Of a stretch of 64,000 nt of DNA, positions 35,278-52,619 are shown in pieces. The stretch is from the NCBI GenBank assembly GCA_963676915.2, contig CAXXVK010000068.1, positions 87,210 through 151,209 on the forward strand. Direction: 5' to 3'. Origin of the DNA: Myxococcota bacterium (GTDB lineage: Bacteria; Myxococcota_A; SURF-8; G963663525). The translations under genes and the position numbers were made by a program. The notes under the pieces were generated by a model. The model searched no databases, was not told the origin of the DNA, and saw only the letters and a list, made by a program, of their open reading frames with translations. How positions within the stretch are numbered: the stretch's first letter is position 1; every line of letters begins with the position of its first letter.

Positions 35278-36534
35278 ATGGAAAAATTCAAAGTAGCCAA
35301 CCTCGACCTCGCCGAACAGGGACGCCTGAAGATCGAATGGGCGCGCACTCGCATGCCCGTCATGGCGCTGTTGAGGAAAAAATTCGGTGAAACGAAACCG
35401 CTGGCCGGGAAACGTATCGCCGGTTGTCTGCACGTCACCAAGGAAACCGCCGTATTGATCGAAACCCTGGCCGCCGCCGGTGCGGAGATCAGCTGGTCGG
35501 GTTGTAACCCGCTTTCGACCCAGGACGACATCGCCGCTGCACTCGCCGCCGATGGATATTCGATGTACGCATGGCACGGAATGAACACCGAGGAATTCTA
35601 CTGGGCCATCGATCGTACGCTCGATTTCAAACCGACGATGACTCTCGACGACGGAGCTGACCTGATTTTCACGGTTCACAACAAATATCCCGAACTGGCC
35701 AAAACGCTGCTCGGTGGTACCGAAGAAACCACCACAGGCGTCCATCGTCTGCGGGCTATGGATCGCGCCGGGAAACTGCTGTACCCCGTGATCGCGGTTA
35801 ACGACGCCGAAACCAAATGGGATTTCGACAACGTATACGGCACCGGACAATCCTCCATCGATGGCATTTTGCGCTCGACATCGATTCTGCTTGCCGGGAA
35901 AAACTTCGTTGTGGCCGGGTTCGGTCACTGTGGCAAAGGTTGTGCGATGCGCGCCAAAGGCATGGGCGCCAACGTTATCGTGACCGAAGTGGACGCCGTG
36001 CAGGCGCTCAAAGCCACCCTCGAAGGCTTCCGCGTGATGAAGATGGACGAAGCCGCTTCCATCGGCGACATTTTCATTACCGCTACCGGAATGAAAGACG
36101 TGATCGTGGATCGCCATTTCAAGGCAATGAAAGACGGCGCGGTGTTCTGCAATACCGGACATTACGATTGCGAAATCAACATTCCGCAATTGGAAGAATT
36201 GTCTACAGGGAAACGGCTGATTCGTGCCAACACCGAAGAATACACCATGCCCAACGGCAACAAGCTGTTCCTGTTGGCTCAGGGTCGGTTGATCAACCTC
36301 GCCGGAGCCGAAGGTCATCCCTCCGAAGTCATGGATATGAGCTTCGCCAACCAGTTCCTCTCCATGGTGAAAATCGCCGAGGAAGGCAAGGATCTGGAAG
36401 TCTGTATGCACGATATCAGCGAGGAACAGGACGCGGAAATCGCCGGGTACAAGCTGGAATCCATGGGAATCGACATCGATGAGTTGACCGAAGATCAGAT
36501 CAACTACCGTGACGATTACGCCGCTGGAACCTGA
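35278..36534 (+). CDS. ahcY: Adenosylhomocysteinase (short form)
   Basis: GCLHVTKETA, SGCNPLSTQD, DDGAD, EETTTG, FDNVYGTGQS and GHPSEVMDMSF. Confidence 0.96.
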   Translation: MEKFKVANLDLAEQGRLKIEWARTRMPVMALLRKKFGETKPLAGKRIAGCLHVTKETAVLIETLAAAGAEISWSGCNPLSTQDDIAAALAADGYSMYAWHGMNTEEFYWAIDRTLDFKPTMTLDDGADLIFTVHNKYPELAKTLLGGTEETTTGVHRLRAMDRAGKLLYPVIAVNDAETKWDFDNVYGTGQSSIDGILRSTSILLAGKNFVVAGFGHCGKGCAMRAKGMGANVIVTEVDAVQALKATLEGFRVMKMDEAASIGDIFITATGMKDVIVDRHFKAMKDGAVFCNTGHYDCEINIPQLEELSTGKRLIRANTEEYTMPNGNKLFLLAQGRLINLAGAEGHPSEVMDMSFANQFLSMVKIAEEGKDLEVCMHDISEEQDAEIAGYKLESMGIDIDELTEDQINYRDDYAAGT

Positions 36535-36685
36535 AAAATGCAGGGTTGCGCGCAAATTTACGCGAAAACCGATACATTCGCTTTACAAGGCTGGTAGAGA
36601 GACTTACAGTTTCAGGGTTGATCCATCTGTATAGGGGACTATCGTTGTCACGTATCTGACGTGCGTAGCATGAAAGGGATTTGCG

Positions 36686-37852
36686 ATGACCAGTGATTTC
36701 ATTTTTACGTCCGAATCGGTGACCGAGGGTCATCCGGACAAAATCGCCGACCAGATTTCCGATGCCGTGCTTGACGGCCTGTTGGCGCAAGATTCCGAAA
36801 GCCGGGTAGCCTGCGAAACGCTGGTGAACACCGGAATGGCGGTGATCGCCGGGGAAATCACCACGGAAGCTTACGTGCACATGCCCGACGTGGTACGTTC
36901 GACCATCAAGAAAATCGGGTACGATGACGGCAAGTTGGGCCTCGACTGGGAGACCTGCTCGGTGATCGTTTCGATCGACCACCAATCCAAAGATATCGCG
37001 ATTGGTGTTGACGAGAAGAAAAACAAGGAACAAGGCGCCGGGGATCAGGGCATGATGTTCGGATATGCCTGCGACGATACCCGCGACCTGATGCCGATGC
37101 CGATCGACCTTTCCCACCGTTTGACCAAAAGATTGGCCGAGGTTCGTAAGAAGAACATTCTCGGATATCTGGGACCGGATGGAAAATCCCAGGTTACGGT
37201 TCGGTACGAAAACTTCCAGCCGGTGGCTATCGATGCCGTGGTGATTTCCAGCCAGCATCTTGCTTCCGTGAAAAACAAAGAGCTTCGTGAAGGCATCATG
37301 GAAGAGGTCATCAAGGCGACGCTGCCCGAGAAACTTCTGCACAAAGGCACGAAATACCACATCAATCCCACCAGTCGGTTCGTCAAAGGCGGACCGCTGG
37401 CCGACTCCGGGTTGACCGGACGCAAAATCATCGTCGATACCTACGGCGGTTGGGGACGCCACGGTGGCGGCGCGTTTTCGGGCAAAGATCCCTCCAAAGT
37501 GGATCGCTCCGCCTGCTACATGGCGCGCCATATCGCCAAGAACGTCGTGGCCGCCAAACTGGCCAAGCGTTGCGAAGTACAACTGGCCTACGCCATCGGA
37601 GTCGCCGAGCCGGTCAGCGTGATGATCGATACCTTCGATACGGGAATCGTGGAAGAGCAAATGCTGTCGAAGCTGATTCGCGAACTCTTCCCGTTGCGCC
37701 CCAAAGGCATCATTGATTACCTCGATCTCAAGCGCCCGATCTATTCCAAAACAGCGGCTTATGGGCACTTCGGTTTCAATACCCGCTCCCTGCCGTGGGA
37801 AAGCACCAAGCCTGCCGCCAAACTCAAAGATATGGCGAAGGGATTGGGCTGA
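36686..37852 (+). CDS. metK: S-adenosylmethionine synthetase
   Basis: [33 protein letters not shown] and [16 protein letters not shown]. Confidence 0.98.
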
Positions 37853-37883
37853 GTTCACTGAAAAGTGATCTTTTCGACCTCTC

Positions 37884-37919
37884 AAGGCTCTTGCGAATTC
37901 GTTTGCAAGAGCCTTTTTT
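37884..37919 (+). terminator. Rho-independent terminator after metK
   Basis: AAGGCTCTTGCGAA-TTCG-TTTGCAAGAGCCTT followed by a T-run. Confidence 0.8.
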
Positions 37920-38333
37920 AGTGGCGAATTTTCGGCGAGAATATTTCCATGTCGTTTCGCGCTATTTCGTTTTGAATCGTTTCGTTTCACGTCGATTCGG
38001 AGGAGATTGTGCAAAAACGTCCGGCAGATTCGGATCTGCTCGAACCCCCGAAAACGGCGGTTTTCTGTGATATGTTGCGGAATCTGTCATATATGACAGC
38101 ACAAGGTGTGGCACAAAGGGAGGTTTTCGAGCACGAAACGGCACGAAACGACGCGGTTTGGATCGCACAGAGGCGACTCACAACGAGAAGGGACGAATTT
38201 GCGTTATCTCCTCCGATTCGACGTGATATTGCATAGGGGAATTCCTACGAAAAAGATTGACTTTACAGGGGGAGCCTTCATACATTGAAATGCCTTTAAA
38301 TGTGTTGGAAATTTATAAAACGAGCGGAGTTCC

Positions 38334-40181
38334 GTGGGATCGTCGGAACAAATCATTCAGGAAATCAAGGATCGGGCGGGCATCGTAAACGTGGTGTCCC
38401 GGTACGTCGATCTGAAGCGAAAAAGCGGACGCTACTGGGGTCGTTGTCCGTTTCATGCGGAGAAAACCGCCTCGTTTTCGGTCAATGAAGAGAACCAGTT
38501 TTACTACTGTTTCGGTTGCCATGCCAAAGGAGATGTTTTCAGCTTTTTGCAGAACATCGAAGGCATTGGTTTCGGCGAAGCTCTTGAACGGCTCGCTGCC
38601 GAAACCGGAGTCGAGTTGCCGAAAAAGACCGACTTCAAGCAGGATCAGGAAAAGCAGTCGCTTCGGCAACGGATTCTCGAAATCAACGGTCTTGCACAAG
38701 ACTGGTTCAAAAGATCGCTCACCCCGGATTCACCCGCGAAAAAATATCTGAAAAAACGAGGGGTTTCTCCTGAAATGGTCGAGCGCTTCTTGCTTGGTTT
38801 TGCACCGCCGGGTTGGGAGAATCTACAAAAAGAACTGGCTCGGCACAGCGTTGCATCGGTGGAAGTGGAACGCGCCGGGCTGGCCAAAGTCGGCCAAAAA
38901 GGCAATAGAATCGACAGATTCCGAAACCGTCTGATGTTTCCGATCGCCATGGAGCAACAACGGATCGTGGGTTTCGGAGGGCGAGCCATCGACCCGGAGG
39001 ACAAAGGCCCGAAGTACCTCAACTCGCCGGAATCGGTGGCTTTTGACAAATCCAACTGCCTGTACGGATTCTTTCAGGCGCTTCAAGGAATTCGCAGGAA
39101 GAAACGCTGTCTGGTGGTCGAAGGTAACTTGGATGTCGTGATGATGCACCAAGGCGGTTTGGACGAGACCGTGGCGACCCTCGGAACGGCGATGACCGAA
39201 AAGCACGTTCGGCGACTAAAGCGGCTCGCCCCGGATCTGGTGCTGATTTACGACGGAGATGCGGCGGGTCGCAAAGCGGCTTTCAAATCGCTGTCTCTGT
39301 TTTTGGAGCAGGATGTTTCCGCTCGTGTGGTTCTTCTGCCTCCCGAGCACGACCCGGACAGCTTCATTCGGCAGTATGGCGCAGAAGAAATGGAAGCTTT
39401 GGTGGCGGCGGCTCCCTATCTGCTGGATGTTTGGTTGGACGACCTTTTGTCTCATCGTGCTCCGGGGCATCCCGGCGTGGCCGACTGTGTGGAAGCCGCT
39501 GTCCCGATGATCGGGAAGTTGCGCAACAGGGTGCTCAAAGAGCGCTACTTGGATGATCTTTCAACCCGGTTGCAATTGGATCGCAACCTTTTACGGGCCG
39601 AAATTCGACAGCATGCCGCGAAAAAAGGTAAGGATTCCAAACAGTTCAAGTTTTCAAACCTGTCTCTATCGGAAGTCTCCGGACCGGATCTCAAAGCCCA
39701 TGAAGACCTGCTGCTGATGCTCTACCGTATCCCGGAAACCGTGGCGGAATGGTTCGAAGAAGACGAAGTGGTGGAGCGTCTGCCGCTCGATCCTTTTCCC
39801 GAAGTCGTTCAAACGCTTTTGGATGCGCGAAAAGAGGAAAAGAATCTCTCGGTTGTGGAACTGATCGGCTGCTTCGATGGGTCCGATTTGCAGGAACGGA
39901 TGGTCGAACGATTGACGGGAACCAGTGAAAGGACCACGGTCTACACCGATATTTTCGTCCCAGAAACGGCTCGGACGATCTATTTGGATTGTCTCAACCA
40001 GTTGAATTTACAGGGGATTCGAAATGAACTGGCCGATTTGAACCTGGAAATCGACGAGGCGCGGAAATCGGGGGATCACGAACGTTTCGAGCAGTTGTTG
40101 TTGAAAAAGTGGGAACTTAACCGAGAATTATCACTGAACACCGAAAAAAACTTGCGTCTAATAGAAAATGGGGAGGACTAA
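38334..40181 (+). CDS. dnaG: DNA primase
   Basis: CHC2 Zn finger CPFHAEKTASF...CFGC, RFRNRLMFP, PKYLNSPE, TOPRIM VEG and YDGDAAG, HDPD. Confidence 0.97.
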   Translation: MGSSEQIIQEIKDRAGIVNVVSRYVDLKRKSGRYWGRCPFHAEKTASFSVNEENQFYYCFGCHAKGDVFSFLQNIEGIGFGEALERLAAETGVELPKKTDFKQDQEKQSLRQRILEINGLAQDWFKRSLTPDSPAKKYLKKRGVSPEMVERFLLGFAPPGWENLQKELARHSVASVEVERAGLAKVGQKGNRIDRFRNRLMFPIAMEQQRIVGFGGRAIDPEDKGPKYLNSPESVAFDKSNCLYGFFQALQGIRRKKRCLVVEGNLDVVMMHQGGLDETVATLGTAMTEKHVRRLKRLAPDLVLIYDGDAAGRKAAFKSLSLFLEQDVSARVVLLPPEHDPDSFIRQYGAEEMEALVAAAPYLLDVWLDDLLSHRAPGHPGVADCVEAAVPMIGKLRNRVLKERYLDDLSTRLQLDRNLLRAEIRQHAAKKGKDSKQFKFSNLSLSEVSGPDLKAHEDLLLMLYRIPETVAEWFEEDEVVERLPLDPFPEVVQTLLDARKEEKNLSVVELIGCFDGSDLQERMVERLTGTSERTTVYTDIFVPETARTIYLDCLNQLNLQGIRNELADLNLEIDEARKSGDHERFEQLLLKKWELNRELSLNTEKNLRLIENGED

Positions 40182-40299
40182 AAGGTACGGTGGGTTTGTT
40201 GCAACCTATAGGTTAGTCGGATGATTTCTCTACCGACGGACTATTTTTTTCGTTCTTTGAGTTGAAGCAGCGTTCTTCGTTGGAGGAAGTCGGGAGAGA

Positions 40300-40364
40300 G
40301 TAGGTCGGGCTAATTTTTAGCCCGATACTTTGACAATGTCGGGCAAGAAATTTGCCCGACCTAC
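40300..40364. repeat. GTAG-type REPIN, copy 4 (between dnaG and rpoD)
   Basis: GTAGGTCGGGCTAATTTTTAGCCCGATA...TGTCGGGCAAGAAATTTGCCCGACCTAC. Confidence 0.85.
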
Positions 40365-40642
40365 TTCCTCTGCCGTTGGATCGGAAACCCGACGTGAAAT
40401 GTGTGAAGACCGAAACCCATGGACGGAACAAAGTTTTTTCAACTTATATGGAAAAGATTCAGGTTTTCCCGACCGGAATCTTGCTTTTGGGACTCTAATC
40501 ACTAGATTATCTACTGGAAAGGAGCGACAGGTCTTTTGCCGAAGGTGTCATTCGGCGGAAACAAAGGTGAAACAGGGTTCCCGGTGCGGGGAATCGCTGG
40601 TTTGAAAAGGTTAGGGTATCTGTCAATTCTGAAGGAGACACC

Positions 40643-42379
40643 ATGAGTGAGGATCAGCCCCGGCAACATCCGGGGATGGAAAAACTGATCAAAAAGGGGA
40701 GAACGAAAGGTTTCGTCACTTACGACGAAATCAACAAGGCATTGACCACCGAAAAGGTTTCGACCGAAGATCTCGACGACTTGATGGTGATGATGGGAGA
40801 TCTGGAAATCGAAGTGGTCGATAAAGAGTCCGATCTCGATCTGAAATCCGGCTCCAAAAAATCCTCGAAAGGGGATTCGGAGGAGGAGACGGCGGGTAAG
40901 GCGAGCGACCCGGTGCGTATGTACCTGCGAAAAATGGGTTCTGTCTCCCTACTGACACGCCAAGGTGAAGTAGAGATCGCCAAACGCATCGAGGCCGGAG
41001 AGCAGGCGATGCTCAACGTGATCCTCGAAAGTCCGTTGGCCATCAACGAAGTGGTTTCGCTGGCGGATAAAATCAAATCGGGCAACTCGCGTGTGATGGA
41101 ACTGTTCCGTGATGCGGTGGACGAAGAGGAATTATCCGAGGATATTCAGGAAGATCGCATCATCGCCTTGATCGATAAAATCAAAAAACTCGATCGGGAT
41201 CGCCACAGCCTGATGGACAAATTGAACCAACTCGCCGATGACGACGCCCACCGGGAAAAACTGATGGTGCTGGTCGAACAGAACAGCGATAAACTCAAGT
41301 CGATGCTGAAGGACGTGGTCCTCAACAAAAAGCAGATCGACCAGATTATCAATCGCTTGCAGTACTGCATTTCCTGTATCGACAATGCGCGGCGCGAACG
41401 TGCCAACATCGAGAGACGGTATCATGTCAATTACCAGGAATTCTGCCAGGACATGAAACGGTTCTATCGACGTCGGGCCGACGAGGCGAAAATTTTAGCC
41501 AAACTGGAAATCGATCGGGATCTGCTGTTCGAACTCGAAGACCGCTTCATTCAGGCCGAACAGCCGGCTTGGGAAGTCGAGCAGGAAACGAAACTTTCCC
41601 GTGACGATCTCTGCCGGACCTTCGATTCCATCATGTCGGGCAAGCGCCAGGCGGAACGCGCCAAAAGCGAACTCGTCGAAGCCAACCTGCGGCTGGTCGT
41701 TTCGATCGCCAAAAAATACACCAATCGCGGTCTGCAATTCCTCGATTTGATTCAGGAAGGCAACATCGGTCTGATGAAGGCCGTAGACAAGTTCGAGTAC
41801 CAGCGCGGCTACAAATTCTCGACCTACGCCACGTGGTGGATTCGTCAGGCCATCACCCGAGCCATTGCCGATCAGGCACGGACCATCCGCATTCCCGTTC
41901 ACATGATCGAAACCATCAACAAGCTGATCCGAACTTCCAGGCACCTGGTGCAGGAAATTGGTCGCGAGCCGACCCCGGAAGAGATCGGCGAGAAGATGGA
42001 TCTTCCCGTGGACAAAGTGCGTAAGGTACTGAAAATCGCCAAGGAACCGATTTCTCTGGAAACGCCTATCGGTGAAGAGGAAGATTCCCATCTTGGCGAT
42101 TTTATCGAGGACAAGCAGATTCTTTCACCCTCGGACGCGGTGATCAACCTCAACCTGAGCGAACAGACCCGCAAGGTGCTGTCCACGCTGACACCCCGAG
42201 AGGAAAAAGTCCTGCGGATGCGTTTCGGTATCGGCGAGCGCTCGGACCACACGCTGGAGGAAGTCGGCCAGAACTTCGAAGTCACGCGGGAGAGAATCCG
42301 CCAGATCGAAGCCAAAGCCTTGAAAAAACTTCGACATTCCAGCCGTTCCCAGAAACTGAAAAGCTTTTTGGAGAACTGA
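40643..42379 (+). CDS. rpoD: RNA polymerase primary sigma factor
   Basis: Region 1.1, [37 protein letters not shown] and [14 protein letters not shown]. Confidence 0.98.
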
Positions 42380-42410: not shown

Positions 42411-42441
42411 AACGGTCGGGCGTATGTCCGACCGTTTTTTT
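42411..42441 (+). terminator. Rho-independent terminator after rpoD
   Basis: AACGGTCGGGC-GTAT-GTCCGACCGTT followed by a T-run. Confidence 0.8.
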
Positions 42442-42546: not shown

Positions 42547-43395
42547 TCATTGAATTTGCAAAAACGTGGAAGTATCCGTCATTTCTCGTCTGAAAATCGA
42601 CGGAGGGAGAATTTCATGCTTGCGGAAGGTAGCGAGCACCCGCTCGGTAACGTCCGACTCGAAAGCTTTCTCGTACACAACATCGAGCACGTAGGCTTTG
42701 GCCCGCAATCGAACCGCGATGAGATTCTCCTGGAAGACTTGACTTACCAACACTTTCCAAGGCTTTTCCTGGTAGACGTACCGTGAGCTGGTCAGACAGT
42801 TCCCCACCAGTCGTTTGGCCATTTCCACATCCTGGTCCTGCCCGATATAAAAATCCATCTGAACCAGCATGTCCAGCGCTCCCCAGTTACCTGAACTGAC
42901 GACATCCGTAAGAAACTTGTTGTTGGGAATCGTAATGACGTTGTCATCGAGTGTCGTCATGCGAACCGAGCGCAATCCGATGGCTTTGATCTCTCCGTAA
43001 CTTCCTGCGAAGGTGACGCGGTCGCCGACCTGAAAAGGCCGGTCCACAATAATGATGATGCCTGCAAGCACCGATGCTGCAAGATCTTTGAGAGCAAAGC
43101 CGATAGTCACGGCAGCGGTACCGGTGAGGGCCAGTATGACTTCTTTGGACAGGGTCAACGAAGACGTGATCGCCAGGACAATGCCAATGATGTAGATGGC
43201 AAAGCGTACCAATGTGGCAACCTGATTGATGACCAGACGTTTGTCGGCGAAACGATCGGCCAACCCGGACAGCGCCGAGCCGACGAGACGTCCGGTCAAC
43301 CATGTCAGGAATAGGATGATGACGCCGGTAAGCAATCCACCAAAGCGTATCAACTCGATAATATTCAGGTTTCCTCCAGCTGTATCGGGCGGCAT
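42547..43395 (-). CDS. mscS: Small-conductance mechanosensitive channel (MscS family)
   Basis: Three TM segments, IGFALKD, RPFQVGDRV and IGLRSVRMTTLDDNVITIPN. Confidence 0.9.
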   Translation of the reverse strand: MPPDTAGGNLNIIELIRFGGLLTGVIILFLTWLTGRLVGSALSGLADRFADKRLVINQVATLVRFAIYIIGIVLAITSSLTLSKEVILALTGTAAVTIGFALKDLAASVLAGIIIIVDRPFQVGDRVTFAGSYGEIKAIGLRSVRMTTLDDNVITIPNNKFLTDVVSSGNWGALDMLVQMDFYIGQDQDVEMAKRLVGNCLTSSRYVYQEKPWKVLVSQVFQENLIAVRLRAKAYVLDVVYEKAFESDVTERVLATFRKHEILPPSIFRREMTDTSTFLQIQ

Positions 43396-43410
43396 ACGAT
43401 GGCTCCTTTC

Positions 43411-46400
43411 TCAGCTGCGGATCAGATTTTTTCGGCGCAAATACCGATAGACCAACGGTGACCATTCGACGGTGACACCGTAGTCATGATCGCGAAATTC
43501 CAGCACACCCGACTCACGAAGTTTTCCAAGAGAGTCGCGACAGGCATAAAGCGGAAAACGTAACGATTCGGCGGCCTCTTCGGCGCTGATATGTTGATGC
43601 CAGAACACGCAGGCTAGCACGAATTTGTCGGTTTCGTCGCGTTCTTCAAGGACGGACATGTCGGGTTGGGAAAATAGCTGGATATCCATCGTTCGATTGC
43701 CTGCCGGAACCAGTGATTTTTTCCAATAGTGGATCACGGCCTGCGGCGCTCCCAGTGTGAAATCCCAGATCAATCGATTGAAATCTGCAGAAATTTCCGC
43801 GACTTGTGATTCGGTATACACCATGTGTCTGCCGGGGATCAGGTTGTCGTATCGAGGACGCCAGCCTGCGGCATCCATGCGCTTCGCCAGTAGTTCGCTT
43901 ACGAGTTTTTCATCCCAGCCACGCAAAATCACACTGTCACGGAAAGCGTCATTGTCGTTACGTACCCAGGCGAGAAACTGATAGGCGTTTTGTGCGAAAG
44001 CCCCGAGCCAGAACAGGTGCCCGGACGTAGCCTCCATCAATCGGTTGAAAGCCCACCAGCCACGTATGGAATCCACGCCTCGCATAAACAGGTACTGCAT
44101 GTTGTCCAGGACGATCAGACGACGTTCCCCCGCACGGATTCTCCGAGCCAGTTCCTCAATATTTTCGGGAAGTTCCTCGCCGGGAAGCAGTTCTTGCGAA
44201 AAAGCTTCCAGCACGTTTTCCGGTGTAATCAGCCTCTTTTTCAATGTGATGAAAAGCGAGGGAAAATCACCGACTCGCTTCACGCCTTCACGGAGCCATG
44301 TGGATTTGCCGTGTCCGGCCTTGCCGAGAACGAGAAAAGATCCCGTACGATCGCCCTTCTTCCATTTCTCGAACTGTGAGAGGAACGCGTCCATCTTGGG
44401 AAAATGGTCCAATAGCAGCGATTCAGGGATGTCGATACCTTCTCCAAAGACGTCTTCGATCTCAGAAGGCAGGGTGACGGCAATGAGTTCGCGGGTCTTT
44501 TCTTTTTGTTGTTCGAGCTTTTTCCTGAAAATATACGCCAAAACCTTCTGCGACAGATCGAAGCCTTGCATCAGGCGACGCAGCGAACCAACAATCCCGA
44601 CACCGACAAGATAGAAAAATCCGACATATACGAGCAAAAGGGAATACCAGCGACCGGACGAGCGCTCCAGTTCGCGTGCAATACCGGAGTTGGGACGCAG
44701 GGCTACGATGTCGGAGGATATCTTCTTGCGCCACCAGAAAATCATTCCCGTCGTGATGGTGAACACACCGATAATGGTCACTCGAACCGCCAGATGATAC
44801 AGGTACCCCTTTCCTAGAACGTAGGCGGCGATCATCAACAGGGCCATCATCCAGAAAATGAAGCGCGTGGCGATAAGCACGGTGCGCATCAGTTTTTCAC
44901 GGCGCCGGGTGTCCAGAGGTCCGGTGTTGCTGCGGATCAGATCGAGAAGCAGGTTGAAGGTCGCCGCTTGGATCAGTCGGTAAAAACCGTAGATCAGCAT
45001 CAGTCGATAAATCAACGTGATGGCGGATTGCTCGGCCGAAACGTTGGCAAACAGCGGCAAGGAAAAGACGAAAGCAAGAAACAGGAGTTCTCGGTAAAGA
45101 GCGCGGGCAATTCCTGAAAGGGTTCGTTTGATTCCATCGACCAGACCGAGATAGCGTATGCCGATGCTTCGGCTTCGATCCCGTTCGAAATAACGTTTCA
45201 GGACTTTGCGTAGCGTGAAATAGATTAAAATAAACAGCAACAATCCAAAGATCGGCAGGGCAATGGATAGAAACTGATAGGGATCTTTCAGTTGTTGCAG
45301 TTTTTCGTACGCCAGGCGTTCTCCTGCGTATTCCATCCAACGCAACACCAGACTGAAATGCACAAGTTCGCGACCGAACTGGGCGACGCCTTCAGGACCG
45401 AAACCAAGCAATTCCCCACGTTTGAAGGGAGAAATACGTTCAAGAAGAATCAAGCGTTGCAGGTTGAGAGCCTGCTCGAAATCCACCGTAGAGCGAACAC
45501 GTTCCCAAGCGATTTCACGCATTTCCTGGTCCGAGTCGTTGGCTTCCGTTTCCAGTTTCATCGCATCGGCGATGAGATCCGCCTTTTCTTGCACCTGTTC
45601 CGGTGTGAAAACCTGCAATTCCGAGGGGTTGCCTTGAAAACGTGGCGCTTTCGGCAATTGTCCCGGAGCGCTGAGTTCGTCTTCGATACGGTTGCGGGCA
45701 AGCGTCAGGCGCTCCACGATGCTGTCGTACAAGTTGTCGGCTTCGGGGGAATGCAAACGAGCCGCACCCACAAGAGCGGTGGTTTCGGTCAACGATTGAG
45801 AGCGTTTTTCGTCCAGCGCGATCATTTCCTGGCGAGCGATGGCCAGACGCTTGCGATACTCGGCGAGTTCCCCTTTGGTTCCTTCCAATTTGGCGCGTTC
45901 AAGCGCCAGCGTACGTTCGGCGGCATTGGTGGCGGCTTCGGCACGTTCGAGCGCCAATTGCCGGGCTTCCTCGGCGATTCGTGCCTCTTCCTCGGCGCGC
46001 TTGCGGTCGGCTTCCTCTTTGGCCTTGAGTCGAGCCAGTCGCTCGGCTTCCTGTTCGGCCTCCAGAAGTACTTTGATTTCTTCGGGTTTGTGCGAAAGAA
46101 AAGCCTGTCTCAGATCAAGCAGGGTCAACTCGGCTTTTTCCAGGTCCAGCCGAGACGGAACGGGCGGTGGAGGAGGAGCCGACGGTTCTGTGGGTAGCGC
46201 TTCTTTCGTTTGAGTCGAGTCACTGGCAGGACCGGCAGGTAACTCCTTATTCTGATGGCTTTTTTCTTCGATTGCCTTCGCTTTGGCTTGTTCGATAAGG
46301 AAACGCACCACCCGCTTTTTCTCGGCGATGCGAGTACTAAGCTCCATGATTCGATGCGATACTGCTTCACCATCGTTCAAATCAATCGAAAAAAGCGCCG

Positions 46401-47220
46401 ATACTTTGAACATGGTGGAAGGCTGCAAACGAACGAAGTCTCGTAAGGCCGTTGTTTCAAGCTGTACCGTTTTCAGTCGTGCGGCTATCTGATCGGGCGT
46501 GAGAAGTTGAATCTCGGGGGGTGGCTCTGGTGGTGGTGCAGGCGGTGGGGGCGGTGTCACCGGTTTGGGTACCAGAACCTCTGGAGGAACTCCTTCACCG
46601 AGGCGCGAATGAAACCCGGGCATCCAACCTTGTCGTTTGTCGGAAGTTTCAACGCGATACCAGCCAAAGCGGTCTTTTTCATGCAGAATCAGAGGGATAT
46701 CCTTCGCGAGAGGCACCTTCGAAGCACTATAGGACGGCTTTTCGTACAAAGCGCTTTTTCGCAACGTGACGACCCAGTCGATGGGTTCCGGCTTCTTCGT
46801 CGGTGATTCGGAAACAACAGGTTTGTTTGCTGGAGTATTTGGGGTGGAAACACTTGGAGAAGTCGGTTTTTTTTCTTGAACCAAGGGCACGGCAGGTATG
46901 TTTGCCTGAGCTTCTTGCTTTGGCGACGCAGCGGGTTTCTGGGGTTCTTCCGGTTTGGGAGCCGGAGAGTCTGCCGATTCGTTCGGGGTGGCAGACTCCG
47001 TTGGTTTTGCTGCGGTTTCTTGTGATGTTGCAGGAGGTGACACCTGTGGTGGCGTGTCCGATTCGGGGGAGGAGGTTTGTATTGTCGGCTCATCTCCCGG
47101 TGTCGGCGCCATCGTGTCAGGCACCTGACTCCAGGAAAAAAGAGGCAACAAATACAGGAAAAGACCGACCCATACGGAAATCGGAAAGACAAGCAGGTTA
47201 CGCCTGAAATGTTCGATCAT
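43411..47220 (-). CDS. 1269-aa membrane protein: signal, Pro-rich linker, SH3b-like domain, coiled coil, ~6-7 TM, P-loop NTPase and a winged-helix-like tail
   Basis: GWYRVETSDKRQGWMP (SH3-like); EAERLARLKAKEEADRKRAEEEAR (coiled coil); hydrophobic block at ~44590-45270; Walker A GKAGHGKST; Walker B LIVLDN. Confidence 0.75.
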   Translation of the reverse strand: MIEHFRRNLLVFPISVWVGLFLYLLPLFSWSQVPDTMAPTPGDEPTIQTSSPESDTPPQVSPPATSQETAAKPTESATPNESADSPAPKPEEPQKPAASPKQEAQANIPAVPLVQEKKPTSPSVSTPNTPANKPVVSESPTKKPEPIDWVVTLRKSALYEKPSYSASKVPLAKDIPLILHEKDRFGWYRVETSDKRQGWMPGFHSRLGEGVPPEVLVPKPVTPPPPPAPPPEPPPEIQLLTPDQIAARLKTVQLETTALRDFVRLQPSTMFKVSALFSIDLNDGEAVSHRIMELSTRIAEKKRVVRFLIEQAKAKAIEEKSHQNKELPAGPASDSTQTKEALPTEPSAPPPPPVPSRLDLEKAELTLLDLRQAFLSHKPEEIKVLLEAEQEAERLARLKAKEEADRKRAEEEARIAEEARQLALERAEAATNAAERTLALERAKLEGTKGELAEYRKRLAIARQEMIALDEKRSQSLTETTALVGAARLHSPEADNLYDSIVERLTLARNRIEDELSAPGQLPKAPRFQGNPSELQVFTPEQVQEKADLIADAMKLETEANDSDQEMREIAWERVRSTVDFEQALNLQRLILLERISPFKRGELLGFGPEGVAQFGRELVHFSLVLRWMEYAGERLAYEKLQQLKDPYQFLSIALPIFGLLLFILIYFTLRKVLKRYFERDRSRSIGIRYLGLVDGIKRTLSGIARALYRELLFLAFVFSLPLFANVSAEQSAITLIYRLMLIYGFYRLIQAATFNLLLDLIRSNTGPLDTRRREKLMRTVLIATRFIFWMMALLMIAAYVLGKGYLYHLAVRVTIIGVFTITTGMIFWWRKKISSDIVALRPNSGIARELERSSGRWYSLLLVYVGFFYLVGVGIVGSLRRLMQGFDLSQKVLAYIFRKKLEQQKEKTRELIAVTLPSEIEDVFGEGIDIPESLLLDHFPKMDAFLSQFEKWKKGDRTGSFLVLGKAGHGKSTWLREGVKRVGDFPSLFITLKKRLITPENVLEAFSQELLPGEELPENIEELARRIRAGERRLIVLDNMQYLFMRGVDSIRGWWAFNRLMEATSGHLFWLGAFAQNAYQFLAWVRNDNDAFRDSVILRGWDEKLVSELLAKRMDAAGWRPRYDNLIPGRHMVYTESQVAEISADFNRLIWDFTLGAPQAVIHYWKKSLVPAGNRTMDIQLFSQPDMSVLEERDETDKFVLACVFWHQHISAEEAAESLRFPLYACRDSLGKLRESGVLEFRDHDYGVTVEWSPLVYRYLRRKNLIRS

Positions 47221-47272: not shown

Positions 47273-47301
47273 AGGCTACTCTATCCTGGATCTTGGGTCA
47301 A
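47273..47301 (-). promoter_or_regulatory. Putative sigma70 promoter of the NTPase-mscS operon
   Basis: Minus strand TTGACC-17 bp-TAGCCT. Confidence 0.5.
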
Positions 47302-47451: not shown

Positions 47452-48513
47452 ATGGAATCTGTCAAAGCACTGATCCCCTATGCGGATAGCTTGCCCGTTC
47501 ATTGGGTGTGGTTTTACATCCTGTTGCAGATTACCTTTCTGTTGCACATTCTAACGATGAATTTCATGCTTGGCGGTAGCCTGATTACGTTTTTCGAACG
47601 ACTAAAGGGAGGTCATCCCCAAAAAGAGAGCAAGTTGACGCCCATTCTCATAGCCTTGGCGGTCAACCTGGGCGTTCCTCCGCTTCTGTTTGTCCAGGTT
47701 CTGTATGGACAGTTTTTTTACAGCAGCAGCGTGTTGATGGCGATCTACTGGATCAGCGTGATTCCCATTTTGATTCTGGCCTATTACAGTGCTTACATCG
47801 TGGCTTTCAAGGGAAAAGACAATCCGGGCCTGGCCAAGCTGTTCAACGGTATCAGCGCTCTTTTTCTACTGGTTATCGCCTTTTTCTTTGTCAATAACAT
47901 GACGCTCATGCTGAACCCGCAAAACTGGTCGGCGTATTTCGATCATCCGGACGGTAGCTTGCTCAATCTCTCGGACCCTGTCATTTATCCGCGATTTCTG
48001 CATTTCGTTATCGGATCGGTGGCTATCGCTTATCTCGGACGGGTGGTTTTTTACAAAGTTTTAGATGTGCGACCAAGTTCGGATCACTCCGAGATGATTT
48101 CGAAAAGCCTCAAGAGTTTCGCGCTGTTCACTATACTAAATATCGTGGTCGGAATCTGGTTCCTCATCGCACAGCCTAAAGAAATCATGATGCTCTTTAT
48201 GGGTGGCAATATCTTGTACACCCTTCTTCTCGTCGTGGGAATTCTTCTGACGCTGGCGCTTCTGCATTTTGCTTATAAAGGCAAATCGACGGCGGTACTC
48301 GGCGGAACCGTAGCGCTTTTGCTGTTGATGATTCTTCAACGCGATTTCGTGCGAAGCGCCACTCTGGGTCAATATTTTTCATTGGACGATCTGGAAGTCG
48401 TTAGCCAGTCCAGTCCGCTCATTGCATTTCTGATCGTGTTCATCCTCGGCCTGGGGCTTATCTTCATCATGCTCAAACAGGCTTTCGGTGTGAAAGGTGG
48501 TCAAGAATCATGA
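47452..48513 (+). CDS. Polytopic membrane protein, probable second subunit of the cytochrome bd-superfamily oxidase
   Basis: About 9 TM helices with His-containing segments HILTMNFMLGG and RFLHF; ATGA overlap with the next gene; AGGAGG RBS. Confidence 0.65.
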   Translation: MESVKALIPYADSLPVHWVWFYILLQITFLLHILTMNFMLGGSLITFFERLKGGHPQKESKLTPILIALAVNLGVPPLLFVQVLYGQFFYSSSVLMAIYWISVIPILILAYYSAYIVAFKGKDNPGLAKLFNGISALFLLVIAFFFVNNMTLMLNPQNWSAYFDHPDGSLLNLSDPVIYPRFLHFVIGSVAIAYLGRVVFYKVLDVRPSSDHSEMISKSLKSFALFTILNIVVGIWFLIAQPKEIMMLFMGGNILYTLLLVVGILLTLALLHFAYKGKSTAVLGGTVALLLLMILQRDFVRSATLGQYFSLDDLEVVSQSSPLIAFLIVFILGLGLIFIMLKQAFGVKGGQES

Positions 48514-51173
48514 ATTATCCATTCTGGACCATTCCATCTGTCGGCGGAGGTTTCCTGATTGCACTGATCGCCGTTCTTCATGTCTATATCGCGCATCTGG
48601 CTGTTGGCGGCGGACTGTTTTTAGTCTGGACCGAGCGCAAAGCCAGAAAAGAGAACGATAAGAATCTGCTGGCCTACGTGAAGAAGCACACACGCTTTTT
48701 TCTGCTGCTTACCATGGTTTTCGGTGGTATTTCCGGCGTAGGCATCTGGTTCATTATCGCGCTCGTTCAGCCCTCCGCAACGAGCGTATTGATTCATGCC
48801 TTTGTCTTCGGCTGGGCCATCGAATGGGTGTTCTTCATTCTCGAGATCACCGCGTTGCTTCTGTACTACTACCTGTTCGACAAAGCGGACGCCAAAACCC
48901 ATATGTTCTGGGGATGGATTTACTTTGCGGCGGCGTTTTTATCGCTGGTGATCATCAATGGTATTCTTGCCTTTATGTTGACTCCCGGCGGCTGGCTTGA
49001 AACGAAAGGGTTTTGGACGGGATTCTTCAACCCAAGCTATTTTCCCACGCTGTTCCTTCGTACGGCTATGGCGCTTGTCATTGCCGGTATCTTCGGGCTT
49101 GTCACCGCGATTTTCACTGGCGATTCCGACTTTCGCACCAGACTGTTTCGCTATCTTGGCCGCTGGTTGACACTACCGTTTCTGCTGTTTGTCCTTTGCG
49201 GGTATTGGACGCTTCAGGTCGTCCCGAAAGAAGCTTTGGACAACGTGCTGATTTACAATCCGCTGGCACGTCAGTTCGTTCATCCGCTGATCATCGCCTG
49301 CATCGTCATTTTCGGCTGTGGTATCTTTGTCTTGCTGAAACTTCCCAAGAGTCTGTATGTCGCGGCGGCGGCGGCGATGGTTGTCACCGGTCTGGTGTGG
49401 ATCGGCAGTTTCGAGTTCATTCGGGAAATAGCCCGAAAACCCTACGTGATTTACAATCATATGTATTCGACATCGATCCTCAAATCCGATGTCGCGAAAA
49501 TAGAAAAAGCCGGATTTCTCTCCTCTGCCAAGTGGGTGCAAAACAAGAACGTTTCCGACAAGAATGTCATGGAAGCGGGCCAGGAACTTTTCACCCACCA
49601 GTGCCTGATCTGTCATACGGTGGGTGGGTACAATGACATCATGCCCTTAACAAAGAAATACTCGGAATTCGCCATGCAGGCTCAGTTGACCGGGCAAGGG
49701 TTTGTCAGTACCTATATGCCGCCTTTTGTCGGAACCCCTGCCGAGCGTGAAGCACTGGCGCATTACGTGGTGGTCGGACTGCACGACAGAAAACCCGACA
49801 AGCCGGACAATTACAAGATTCCGAAGATCAAGATGGAGATCCCACCCTTCGACAAAGAGAAGGACGACTACATCCTGCTCGCGAAAAATGATCTAGGAAT
49901 GCATTGCATCACGGACGACGATTCGAACTTCGTCATCCTGCCGCCGGCCAACACCGTCCATGCTCAACTCATCAAGCGCGGTGAAATGCCCGAAATTGTT
50001 GGCGAAGGGTACCGCATCGAGTACGAAGCCGAGCCGGGACACAGGCACCCGGAGCAGGAGGTTGCCTTCTGGAAGTGGGCGCCCAAAATTTTCGGGGCGA
50101 ATCTGTCCGACGGAGTAGGACTTTTCGGATTCGGTGTCAAAGGAGAACTGAAACTTCATCAGGAACATGGAGTTTTTACCGCCGAAGCCATTCCGGTGAC
50201 GCCTTATCACAGCGACAAGAAAACCTACAATCCTTACCCGTATCTGAACCTGACGGCGAAAGACAAGGATGGCAATATTGTAGCCCAAACCAAAGTTGTT
50301 ACGCCTACTTCCACCGAAATGGGGTGTCGTCGTTGTCATGGTGGAGGTTGGGGTAAGGATCATATTCCCAGCGGAGTCGGCGCGGAAACGTCCCGAGACA
50401 TTCTGGCAGCTCACGATCGGTTGAGCGGTACCAATTTATTGGCGGAAGCCAAGGCGGGCAACCCTCGGCTCTGCCAGAGTTGCCATGAAGATCCGGCATT
50501 GGGAAGCAAGGGTGACGGCAAACGTCTGGCGATGTCGGCTTCGGTTCACGGCTGGCACGCCGCTTATATGCGCAATATGGGCGAGCAGGCTTGCAACACC
50601 TGCCATCCCAATCATGCGGACGGCATTACTCGCTGCCTGCGTGGTCGGCACAGGACGGATAGCGAATTGACCTGTGTGGATTGCCACGGCGTCATGCAGG
50701 ATCATGCGCTTGCGCTTTTGCAATTCGAAAAAGGCAAAGGGAAAACCCGTGCCGAATCGCTGATGAAAAACCTGAAGCCCCAGGCGGTGGAGAGTGTGGA
50801 TAAAATCAAGCCTCGCCAGAGTTGGTTGCAGGAACCGGACTGCCTGAGCTGTCATGTTGGATTTCAACCGCCGGAAGAGGCGAATTCCTTCAACAAGTGG
50901 GTGGCGTGCGGCAACGAATTGTTCCGCAATCGCACGGACCCCAGAGGTATTCGCTGCGCCATGTGCCACGGTGCGCCTCATGCCATCGTACCCGCTGCAA
51001 ACGCTTATAGTGAAAATCGGGACAATATTCAGTCCATGCAATACCAAGGGAACCCGAATACCATCGGAAACGGAAACGCTTGTTTCGTCTGTCACAAGAA
51101 GCTGATGCGTGTCAACGCTCACCACAAAGGGATGCTTAAAGCGGATCTGCTTCCCATGGAGGACGACAAATAA
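48510..51173 (+). CDS. Cytochrome bd subunit I-like protein fused to a monoheme and a multiheme cytochrome c (8 CxxCH)
   Basis: HVYIAHLAVGGG, WAIEWVFF and EFIREIARKPYVI (CydA-like); heme motifs CLICH, CRRCH, CQSCH, CNTCH, CVDCH, CLSCH, CAMCH and CFVCH. Confidence 0.82.
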   Translation: MNYPFWTIPSVGGGFLIALIAVLHVYIAHLAVGGGLFLVWTERKARKENDKNLLAYVKKHTRFFLLLTMVFGGISGVGIWFIIALVQPSATSVLIHAFVFGWAIEWVFFILEITALLLYYYLFDKADAKTHMFWGWIYFAAAFLSLVIINGILAFMLTPGGWLETKGFWTGFFNPSYFPTLFLRTAMALVIAGIFGLVTAIFTGDSDFRTRLFRYLGRWLTLPFLLFVLCGYWTLQVVPKEALDNVLIYNPLARQFVHPLIIACIVIFGCGIFVLLKLPKSLYVAAAAAMVVTGLVWIGSFEFIREIARKPYVIYNHMYSTSILKSDVAKIEKAGFLSSAKWVQNKNVSDKNVMEAGQELFTHQCLICHTVGGYNDIMPLTKKYSEFAMQAQLTGQGFVSTYMPPFVGTPAEREALAHYVVVGLHDRKPDKPDNYKIPKIKMEIPPFDKEKDDYILLAKNDLGMHCITDDDSNFVILPPANTVHAQLIKRGEMPEIVGEGYRIEYEAEPGHRHPEQEVAFWKWAPKIFGANLSDGVGLFGFGVKGELKLHQEHGVFTAEAIPVTPYHSDKKTYNPYPYLNLTAKDKDGNIVAQTKVVTPTSTEMGCRRCHGGGWGKDHIPSGVGAETSRDILAAHDRLSGTNLLAEAKAGNPRLCQSCHEDPALGSKGDGKRLAMSASVHGWHAAYMRNMGEQACNTCHPNHADGITRCLRGRHRTDSELTCVDCHGVMQDHALALLQFEKGKGKTRAESLMKNLKPQAVESVDKIKPRQSWLQEPDCLSCHVGFQPPEEANSFNKWVACGNELFRNRTDPRGIRCAMCHGAPHAIVPAANAYSENRDNIQSMQYQGNPNTIGNGNACFVCHKKLMRVNAHHKGMLKADLLPMEDDK

Positions 51174-51267: not shown

Positions 51268-52619
51268 CTAAATAAGTTTGACTAAAAGGGCGGCGAGAAA
51301 TCCTCCCAAGGTTGAAAGACCTACAACGGGTCCGCCTCCCTGTTCGAAAGCTTCGGGCAACATGGTTTCGGCGCGATCATGGTAAGCATTGCACCTCCGG
51401 CCAATCCCTCGATGCCGACTAAAAAATAATGCATCCACTGGTCCGGATGGGGCGGGAAAATCGCCGCTCCGATAAGTGCTCCAATTCCCGTCATAATGCA
51501 TAAAGATAGCCACATGAGCATGATTTTGGATGTTTTCATTCCACCGTTTTTCATGGCGACGGCGCTACTCATGGCTTCTGGGAGATTGGCGAGAAAAACG
51601 CCGACGATGAAGGCAATGGACATCCCCGAGCCTTCCGAGAAGGCCGTAACCACCAACATTCCAATGACCAGTGATTCGGGAATGCCGTCTAGGGCGATAC
51701 CCAACCAGATGGCCATTGCGGCGCCTCCACCATGGCTTGCTGCTTCCTGTTGAATGTCCTTATCCGTGGTGGGAATAGGCATTCGCTCGAACGATGCCAT
51801 CGCTTGTTTTTCCCACTGCTTGGCTTCGTCGGGGTCTGTGTTCAGTTTGTTGGCAAGTTCCTGAATGCGCTGTCCCGCAATCTTCGAAATCGCGACGTCT
51901 AGGTCTGGCGATGTGTTGAGCAAACGCTTGGCATCGGAACGAAACAGTTCTAGGGTACGTACTTCTCCTTGTGCAATAGCGGTTGCCGTGCGGTTTTGGT
52001 CGCTGACAAGGGCGATTTCCCCAAACAGATCTCCCTTACCTAAAAGGGCAACGTCTTGCTCGGTACCATCAACAGTACGTGTAAGACGCACTTTTCCGGA
52101 AACGATGAAGTAGAGTCGGTCGCCACTTTCGCCTTCTTTGAACAGAACATGGTTGTTGGCATAATCTCCTTGGGTAAGGTGGGTCATCAACCCAACCACC
52201 TCCTCCGGTGGAAGAGGCTGTAAGAATTTGATTTTGCTGAGAGTTTTAAGCATCGAGCGGGCTTGTGCGGTTTTTTGTTTTCGGATGTATTTGCGGAGCA
52301 ATGATCCGTGGCGCATAAAAGCGCCTTTGCTGTTTAACAGGTGATTGAGTCCCTGAAACAACAAACCTCCTACTGCGGCCGCACTTACGACAATAACTAT
52401 CAGCAAATGGTCTTCGATATGACCGTGAGAACTAGCCTTATGCAAAGCATGTCCGAAAAGCTCGATACTCAAGGCAAACAGCAAAGCGCCACCACCGAAG
52501 GCCATTAAAGCCGAGTTTAATTTGCTCCCGATATGGGTGGTAAGTCCGATAACGGCACCCATGGGTAAAGAGACAGCGCTGATCAAACCCCACATCAAGC
52601 CCAATAGCAGGAGCTCCAT
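51268..52619 (-). CDS. ZIP (ZupT/GufA)-family metal transporter with an inserted cyclic-nucleotide-binding domain; frameshift near 51370
   Basis: ZIP N-half MAFGGGALLFALSIELF; cNMP domain LFKEGESGDRLYFIVSGKV...FGEIAL...RTATA; ZIP C-half LDGIPES and ANLPEAMSS; the alternative frame gives the true end ETMLPEAFEQGG...LLVKLI*. Confidence 0.85.

Follow-up and report, generated by a model that had tools for sequence, protein, structure and literature searches.

Why should the gene for a small mechanosensitive channel lie directly behind the gene for a giant membrane ATPase? The question is raised by a 64,000 nt stretch of DNA from a Myxococcota bacterium (assembly GCA_963676915.2, contig CAXXVK010000068.1, positions 87,210 to 151,209), hereafter the window, in which two minus-strand open reading frames (ORFs) lie within positions 42547-47220. 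Gene 1 (43411-47220, −) encodes a 1269-residue protein with an exported, putatively sensory region, a membrane domain and a cytoplasmic AAA+/STAND-like module. Gene 2 (42547-43395, −) encodes a 282-residue MscS-family channel belonging to a slowly evolving, partner-specific subfamily. An earlier account made from the letters alone (the sequence-only reading) saw in them a candidate ATP-controlled, wall-tethered channel system. We found the pair to be obligate in every sample examined, with the ATPase module and the MscS as its invariant parts, and we favour, at somewhat below an even chance, a reading in which an MscK-like channel has been split into two genes and placed under the control of a nucleotide switch.

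The large gene and the MscS gene occur as a pair

The intergenic gap between gene 1 and gene 2 is 15 nt long and contains GAAAGGAG 7 nt upstream of the gene 2 ATG, read from the sequence as a ribosome-binding site (AAAGGAG, 43403-43409, −). ORFs and sequence therefore agree on the two-gene minus-strand unit described by the sequence-only reading. The promoter that it placed at 47273-47301 (−) was not recovered: a consensus scan gave no minus-strand promoter-like site there, and across the whole region it returned two sites against 2.8 expected, both on the plus strand.

Linkage of the two genes was assessed from both sides, in genome samples that overlap partly. Starting from the MscS, a scan with a 12-member alignment (A3) and one genome per species confirmed 466 relatives, of which the best 80 were kept; the other 386 lie outside the loci scored. 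A large gene lies directly upstream on the same strand in all 80 of these loci, with matches that span the whole profile. Starting from the large protein, homologs were present in 16 of 41 related genomes, and an MscS homolog lies directly downstream in each of the 12 loci fetched from them (12/12), where identity is 42-96 % for the MscS versus 23-86 % for the large protein. A wider profile search matched 52 of 151 genomes of the phylum, and the MscS gene was directly downstream in 42/42 large-protein loci (30/30 top matches and 12/12 weaker full-length ones), a set that leaves aside about five further full-length matches of that search. The sequence-only reading had tied its case in advance to linkage of the large protein's homologs to mscS, and every locus scored in either direction bears this out. 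The two proteins are on separate genes in all loci examined, divided here by a stop codon and the short gap. There is no third conserved gene, the next cluster of neighbouring ORFs being present in 19/80 loci.

Judging by record titles, carriers belong to many families of Myxococcota and to Acidobacteriota, Gemmatimonadota, Proteobacteria including Burkholderiales, and others, although some labels of metagenome-assembled genomes among them may be unreliable; cultured carriers are Chondromyces apiculatus DSM 436 and two Solimonas strains. The large-protein family is sizeable: an exhaustive search gave 1777 cluster representatives with E ≤ 1e-3, of which 276 have E ≤ 1e-30. Its annotation is limited to names such as 'hypothetical protein', 'AAA family ATPase' and 'ATP-binding protein', and a word-based homolog search returned ten relatives, all unnamed or 'hypothetical protein'.

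The MscS partners also stand together phylogenetically. A tree of 71 MscS sequences was built from 31 of 92 rows linked to a large gene, all 27 partners of the transporter-type proteins described below and 12 unlinked paralogs, together with one tandem copy. Sequences linked to a large gene form one clade with short branches (SH-aLRT 100) and the transporter-type partners a second group (support 81), whilst the branch between all linked and all unlinked MscS is weak (73). The tandem copy (L072:6863-8744, +) is a second partner-type MscS (profile E 4.4e-121) and groups inside the partner-linked clade. The source genome has two more MscS genes elsewhere, marking gene 2 as a specialized paralog.

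The same module is carried by transporters

The profile search also matched proteins of 1300-1820 residues that are homologous to gene 1 only from its juxtamembrane helix (approximately F898/R899/E903) to the C-terminus, the matches beginning at profile position 660-677 or thereabouts. These proteins, found in other Myxococcota, consist of a transporter domain, a helical region of approximately 700-800 residues and the ATPase/winged-helix module. We fetched 28 such loci (L135-L162). An N-terminal Na+/H+-exchanger domain was present in 21 of the 28 when one such domain was used as a phmmer query, and Na_H_Exchanger (PF00999) was confirmed by Pfam in all six checked (E 1e-17 to 1e-28). Three had an amino-acid-permease N-terminus (PF00324, E 1e-39 to 1e-47), three had no recognized N-terminal domain and one was cut by a contig end. 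One transporter-fused protein ends in LRQRNLI, the same tail motif as that which closes the gene 1 family.

An MscS-like ORF follows directly on the same strand in 27 of these 28 loci, with L145 as the exception; for example, L137:3937-8841 (−) is followed by an MscS at L137:3049-3933 (−). This recurrence identifies the ATPase/winged-helix module and the MscS as the invariant couple, to which the membrane part in front is an exchangeable addition. It also points to ion and osmolyte homeostasis, not defence. We found no published description of a transporter-module-MscS architecture.

The cytoplasmic module resembles a nucleotide switch

An AlphaFold2 (AF2) model of gene 1 residues 500-1269 reached a predicted local distance difference test (pLDDT) score of 91.3 and contains a three-domain fold of P-loop domain, helical lid and winged helix. 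The best Foldseek matches were Cdc6/Orc1 proteins (2qby_B, E 2.9e-7; 1fnn_A, E 5.6e-7), followed by the archaeal ATPases 2qen and 2fna, Apaf-1 (3shf, E 1.2e-5) and plant and animal NLRs (E approximately 1e-5), all at probability 1.00. A profile search against PDB sequences gave generic P-loop matches alone. In Pfam, the gene 1 protein matched AAA_22 with 24.7 bits against a cut-off of 27 (E 3.1e-5) and AAA_16 with 17.4 against 32.6, and its nSTAND5 match was likewise below cut-off. Among 18 family members, AAA_22 was matched by 17 (best E 3.1e-12), AAA_16 by seven and NACHT by six. The alignments, structural matches and family-level Pfam results together uphold the AAA+/STAND-like NTPase of the sequence-only reading, and the AF2 secondary structure and the Cdc6/Orc1 similarity do the same for its winged-helix-like tail.

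The P-loop nucleotide-binding domain spans residues 943-1100 (43921-44394, −), as delimited by Pfam AAA_22, Foldseek and column counts in an 84-row alignment (A2) on which all conservation counts are based. Its Walker A motif is GKAGHGKST at residues 966-974 (44299-44325, −), with the pattern G966-x2-G969-x-G971-K972-S/T, in which G969 is conserved in 83/84 rows, G971 in 84/84 and K972 in 78/84. The Walker B motif, seen in the translation and alignments, is LIVLDN at residues 1035-1040 (44101-44118, −), where D1039 is present in 81/84 rows and a second acidic residue in just 41/84. The helical lid (residues 1104-1170; 43711-43911, −), defined by AF2 secondary structure and column counts, carries R1114 (83/84) and the motif G1157-x-P1159-(R1160), conserved in 84/84, 83/84 and 69/84 rows, respectively. 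The winged helix and C-terminal tail (residues 1171-1269; 43414-43710, −; AF2) include H1208, found in 78/84 rows, and end here in LRRKNLIRS, an instance of the motif LRRK[HN]L[IL]xx that closes nearly all 84 rows. Some members show weak MarR_2, HTH_24, TrmB or HTH_20 matches on this tail. No C-terminal repeat or sensor domain follows the winged helix, the protein stopping approximately 60 residues past H1208.

STAND proteins are marked by a GxP motif in their lid and by a His in their winged helix. The conservation of both here, together with the second Walker B acid being present in only about half of the family, suggests that the module is more likely to act as a nucleotide switch than as a motor.

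The channel protein

Gene 2 is an MscS-family protein, as originally read from its sequence: PF00924 (MS_channel_2nd) matches with 64.3 bits against a cut-off of 20.2 (E 1.1e-17), and residues 22-241 align with residues 32-250 of Escherichia coli MscS (E 7.5e-15). Five NCBIfam models for MscS, MscK or MscM also match (E 1.9e-13 to 1.7e-20), none of them reaching its equivalog cut-off. Hydropathy places hydrophobic segments at residues 12-30, 59-77 and 84-123, and the protein is collinear with solved MscS structures, in which three N-terminal membrane helices, the third lining the pore, precede beta and alpha-beta domains. The solved relatives of gene 2 were deposited with seven chains per entry, and by analogy a heptameric channel with a pore of MscS type is predicted. 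In a by-eye reading of the alignment, the E. coli pore residues L105/L109 correspond to V/F in gene 2 and the hinge residue G113 to D, and this D is invariant across the 12 members of A3.

Exported and membrane regions of gene 1, and their possible likeness to MscK

Ahead of the ATPase module, hydropathy, the translation and AF2 agree with the signal peptide, Pro-rich linker and long helical region given by the sequence-only reading. The signal peptide or signal anchor (residues 1-31; 47128-47220, −) comprises RR, a hydrophobic stretch at 9-27 and then SWS-Q; of 98 full-length family representatives, 80 have a hydrophobic segment at the N-terminus, which in many of them ends like a typical signal peptide. 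The linker that follows, rich in Pro, Ser, Thr and Glu (residues 32-150; 46771-47127, −) and read off the translation, is missing in most aligned family members. Beyond an SH3-fold domain (residues 155-203; 46612-46758, −), a long, coiled-coil-like periplasmic helical region occupies residues 240-646 (45283-46503, −) in alignments A1 and A2 and in AF2, which places helices at residues 540-595 and 609-643. The region closes with a conserved R601/LGFGPEG/E618 motif.

The SH3 domain was recognized by phmmer against the PDB, where the best match was 2drm_A (E 4.5e-4; query 15-63 against chain 6-53) and 50 or more SH3 chains were among the matches. Pfam SH3_1 matched below cut-off (E 0.083), and no bacterial SH3 Pfam family matched the gene 1 protein at E ≤ 1. 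The domain occurs in only 4/18 aligned family members. The proposed SH3b-like domain is confirmed as an SH3 fold but not in its peptidoglycan-binding sense, the best matches being canonical SH3 domains. The notion of a wall-tethered system is not supported, the domain being a lineage-specific addition.

The membrane domain (residues 647-886; 44563-45282, −) consists of six hydrophobic helices at approximately 647-683, 693-720, 733-766, 771-802, 806-829 and 860-886, according to the hydropathy of the protein and its family and to AF2, in line with the six to seven transmembrane helices first noted. A separate AF2 model of residues 590-910 had a pLDDT of 92.1. A conserved juxtamembrane helix follows at residues 887-909 (44494-44562, −), with conserved A895, F898, R899 and E903.

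Whether these N-terminal parts are related to MscK was addressed by several comparisons. In a VIA structural search of 48,161 chains, the longest alignments were to MscS-family channels that have additional membrane helices at the N-terminus, including residues 474-760 of E. coli MscK (Z 7.0, root-mean-square deviation 8.3 over 202 aligned residues) and Flycatcher1 (Z 6.9 over 174 aligned residues), at Z scores in the range below approximately 13 in which matches between helical bundles can be due to chance. A comparison of the family profile with a profile of six MscK-like proteins by hhalign gave a probability of 71 % (E 3.6e-5) over 79 columns and paired gene 1 residues 765-854 with MscK 614-684, by hydropathy the hairpin of the fourth and fifth helices in both. 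The same program, given A1 and the single E. coli MscK sequence, returned a probability of 0.9 % (E 0.063). Once AAA clusters were set aside, residues 240-900 had as language-model neighbours MscS_TM, MscS_porin, DUF3772 and MscM clusters at a similarity of 0.79-0.81, which serves as a lead only. By hydropathy, the order of parts is also shared: signal peptide, long periplasmic helices, first span, K/R-rich loop, hairpin, K/R-rich loop and hairpin.

These are four convergent yet weak signals of MscK-likeness, those of similarity falling on MscK 474-760, and we consider true homology of the N-terminal two-thirds to MscK/MscM to have a roughly even chance. The 'split MscK-like' assembly of the sequence-only reading thus gains these four signals but falls short of demonstrated homology, and the Pfam MscS_TM family gives no match. 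If the homology is true, MscK would be the fused counterpart of the pair, in itself an argument for physical association. The proteins MscK (KefA) and MscM share with the pair a signal peptide, a helical periplasmic domain of approximately 450-600 residues, a first span, hairpins and an MscS pore. They differ in that the pair is split over two genes, that its first half ends in an AAA+/STAND-like ATPase absent from MscK, and that by hydropathy MscK has eight helices ahead of the pore core versus six in gene 1.

A proposed split channel under the control of a nucleotide switch

In the reading that we favour, each of the two genes would encode one half of a single membrane complex. Gene 2 would supply the MscS-type pore, and gene 1 an exported helical sensor, an MscK/MscM-like bundle of membrane helices and a cytoplasmic ORC/Cdc6/STAND-like nucleotide switch, with the gene 1 membrane domain surrounding the MscS pore or docking onto it. 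The helical region would sense periplasmic conditions, the SH3 domain having been added in this lineage. Signals from the periplasm or the membrane would set the nucleotide state of the switch, and that state would set the opening, closing or inactivation of a dedicated MscS paralog. A reverse flow would be equally compatible, with the channel sensing tension on behalf of the switch and of the transporter fused to it. Solute release would be tied to ionic conditions and to energy status, with a role in osmotic and ionic homeostasis. The anatomy, the obligate linkage and the recurrence of the ATPase module on CPA and APC transporters ahead of an MscS gene are observed; that the two proteins bind, in what ratio, which of them controls the other, what they do for the cell and that the ATPase gates the channel are what we infer.

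A complex prediction was run with gene 1 residues 600-1269 and the MscS, both with alignments, at 1:1 stoichiometry; the sequence-only reading had envisaged a multimer prediction with an MscS heptamer. The ipSAE score was 0.53 (0.55, 0.52 and 0.53 in individual runs) versus 0.00 for the best of three controls. The runs shared at least 81 % of contacts and the partner pLDDT was at least 75; no interface was reported. The pass mark is one that 116 of 157 solved pairs and two of 215 mismatched pairs attained; among these, scores of 0.60 or lower account for just 18 of the solved pairs but for both mismatches. Combined with the strong prior given by linkage, the modelled score is mildly favourable.

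Several points weigh against this reading. The complex prediction favours binding at the level of weak support, and linkage, as a functional tie, says nothing on the direction or kind of control. A natural fusion of gene 1 and MscS was not found, a blank that is weak evidence in this search mode. The apparent fusion P0075 (a metagenome protein of 1252 residues) was rejected, as a stretch of approximately 215 residues between its two parts looks out of frame and a frameshifted gene call is most likely; two other longer proteins from the fusion search were longer MscS-family proteins without the ATPase. In respect of MscK, Pfam MscS_TM (PF12794) and MscS_porin (PF12795) had no match in gene 1 at E ≤ 1 nor in the 18 members at E ≤ 0.01, and a Foldseek search with the membrane domain (590-910 model) gave nothing at E ≤ 0.001 (best E 2.3). 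Elsewhere in the source genome and in other pair-carrying genomes PF12794 likewise had no match, its only hits being genuine MscK-like genes in 5/81 genomes.

The ATPase itself adds to these difficulties. The gene 1 protein has N1040 after the Walker B Asp (44101-44103) and Q1160 in place of the lid Arg (43741-43743), a Q found in no other row of A2; a same-genus homolog has E at this position. From these residues, the ATPase of the window's protein may bind nucleotide and barely hydrolyse it, hydrolysis perhaps having been lost in its lineage. Topology raises a further problem, as an exported N-terminus followed by six helices, an even number, would place the ATPase outside the cell. The K/R-rich loops at 669-700, 751-780, 830-859 and 885-915 all look cytoplasmic, so that at least one hydrophobic helix is not a simple span. 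The helix at 860-884, which is the most hydrophobic of the six, has a K/R-rich 'inside' loop on either side (44494-44643 for residues 860-909) and continues straight into the conserved charged helix 887-909.

A broader form of the split-channel reading, which we regard as unlikely, would extend one hitherto undescribed control principle to a whole class of solute-flux devices. A membrane-anchored STAND-like switch, carried by an MscK-like sensor or by a CPA or APC transporter, would form a ring docked against the cytoplasmic cage of its dedicated MscS heptamer, joining uptake or antiport and emergency release in a single ATP-dependent regulator of volume and ions. Helix 860-884, not being a simple span, might then enter the lipid pockets of MscS from the cytoplasm and so determine the tension at which the channel opens.

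Genomic surroundings

The MscS gene faces housekeeping genes: dnaG (615 residues) and rpoD (578 residues) lie in tandem at 38334-42379 (+) and converge on it. Between rpoD and the MscS gene, a terminator-like site scan and the sequence identified a hairpin with an 11-bp stem (42411-42436), followed by a T-run on the plus strand only, which is possibly a shared terminator of the two. On the other flank of the pair, a 353-residue ORF without an assigned function (47452-48513) precedes a multihaem cytochrome gene. At its N-terminus this 887-residue ORF (48510-51173, +) resembles subunit I of cytochrome bd (PF01654, E 1.8e-8); it also contains several multihaem cytochrome c domains, and its start at 48510 overlaps the stop of the 353-residue ORF. 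Further on, a 432-residue ORF (51321-52619, −) contains a cyclic-nucleotide-binding domain (E 2.6e-23) and a ZIP zinc-transporter-like domain below cut-off (E 6.8e-8) and, by these domain matches, may encode a metal transporter regulated by cyclic nucleotides. On the far side of dnaG, a 504-residue ORF (36500-38014, −) had no Pfam match at E ≤ 0.001.

Alternative explanations

The large protein might be an AAA+ assembly or placement factor that acts in the manner of ExeA/GspA, inserting, localizing or anchoring the MscS and taking no part in gating. AAA_22 being the best Pfam match, in 17 of the 18 members, the large periplasmic region, here with an SH3 domain, and the strict linkage to MscS would all suit such a role. 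However, the SH3 domain is confined to 4/18 members, the module is also fused to complete CPA and APC transporters that need no such helper, and the STAND-like GxP and His motifs suggest a switch; we therefore hold this explanation to be unlikely. A membrane-tethered signalling role would turn the argument from transport to gene expression: the MscS-like protein or the periplasmic region would sense stress in the envelope, and the ATPase, which is ORC/Cdc6-like and has a winged helix, would bind DNA or another target and change expression, ion flux being secondary. The closest folds are indeed those of DNA-binding Cdc6/Orc1 proteins with a C-terminal winged helix, and some members have the weak helix-turn-helix matches on the tail noted above, yet the winged-helix His is typical of STAND nucleotide sensing, the transporter fusions and the invariable MscS partner point to transport, and there is no conserved target gene nearby. 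We judge this role highly improbable.

Pairing a STAND NTPase with a pore effector is a frequent design among defence systems, and the sequence-only reading had offered defence as its own alternative. Here the STAND-like ATPase would sense phage infection and open the MscS pore, the membrane potential would collapse and infection would be aborted, in keeping with that design and with the weak NACHT, nSTAND and NB-ARC Pfam matches in some members. The surroundings speak otherwise: neither protein matched any PADLOC-DB family at E ≤ 1, the pair adjoins dnaG and rpoD, and PADLOC matches (E ≤ 1e-5) were found in 9 of 117 neighbouring ORFs from 17 loci with no recurring system, mostly in broad classes (kinase-like, helicase-like, ATPase, transporter and one TIR-like). 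In addition, the MscS evolves slowly, a C-terminal sensor repeat domain is lacking and the paralogs are fused to ion and solute transporters, so that abortive infection appears very unlikely and the defence alternative loses its footing. There is finally the prospect that the two genes are co-transcribed yet functionally independent, together by chance or through shared regulation only. Neighbouring genes often encode proteins that do not bind, and the complex score gives weak support, but adjacency in 80/80, 42/42 and 27/28 loci, across phyla and three N-terminal architectures, and the partner-specific MscS subfamily leave this explanation barely credible.

Comparison with known systems and implications

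Relative to the canonical MscS (E. coli YggB), gene 2 is collinear with residues 32-250 but belongs to a distinct, slowly evolving clade that adjoins a large gene in every scored locus. With STAND NTPases (Apaf-1, NLRs and the Avs/MalT type) and ORC/Cdc6, gene 1 has in common the P-loop/lid/winged-helix module with conserved GxP and His. Unlike either, its module is membrane-anchored behind a transporter-like or MscK-like domain, and all Pfam STAND and AAA models fall below cut-off in the gene 1 protein; it also departs from STAND proteins in ending without a C-terminal repeat sensor, with the short tail LRRK[HN]L[IL] instead.

Two further systems combine some of the same elements. Cyclic-nucleotide-binding bCNG channels are MscS-family proteins in which a small ligand-binding domain is built into a single polypeptide; they likewise join an MscS pore to a cytoplasmic regulatory module, whereas the regulator here is a separate 1269-residue protein with an NTPase. 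In ExeA/GspA of type II secretion, an AAA_22-type ATPase is joined across the inner membrane to a periplasmic envelope-binding domain. ExeA has its ATPase at the N-terminus and a single span, and works with ExeB and the secretin. The combination of an AAA_22-type ATPase and a periplasmic region through the inner membrane is common to both, but the orientation is opposite, ExeA has the single span and its partner is not a channel.

No paper on an MscS-NTPase pair was found in openly searchable full text. PMC13192273 concerns an unrelated MscS and a KAP NTPase. Regulated MscS-family channels are already known; what is new is an NTPase partner encoded apart from the channel and met again on transporter fusions.

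The finding bears on how such channels are thought to be governed. MscS-type channels are understood as tension-opened valves, tuned at most by built-in domains. If the split-channel reading is true, a separate ATP-binding partner would give bacterial mechanosensation a layer of control that depends on nucleotide or energy, and a STAND-type switch would be coupled to channels and transporters and not to cell death or transcription. The presence of the module on Na+/H+-exchanger and permease domains, each with an MscS of its own, hints at integrated regulation of cell volume and ions.

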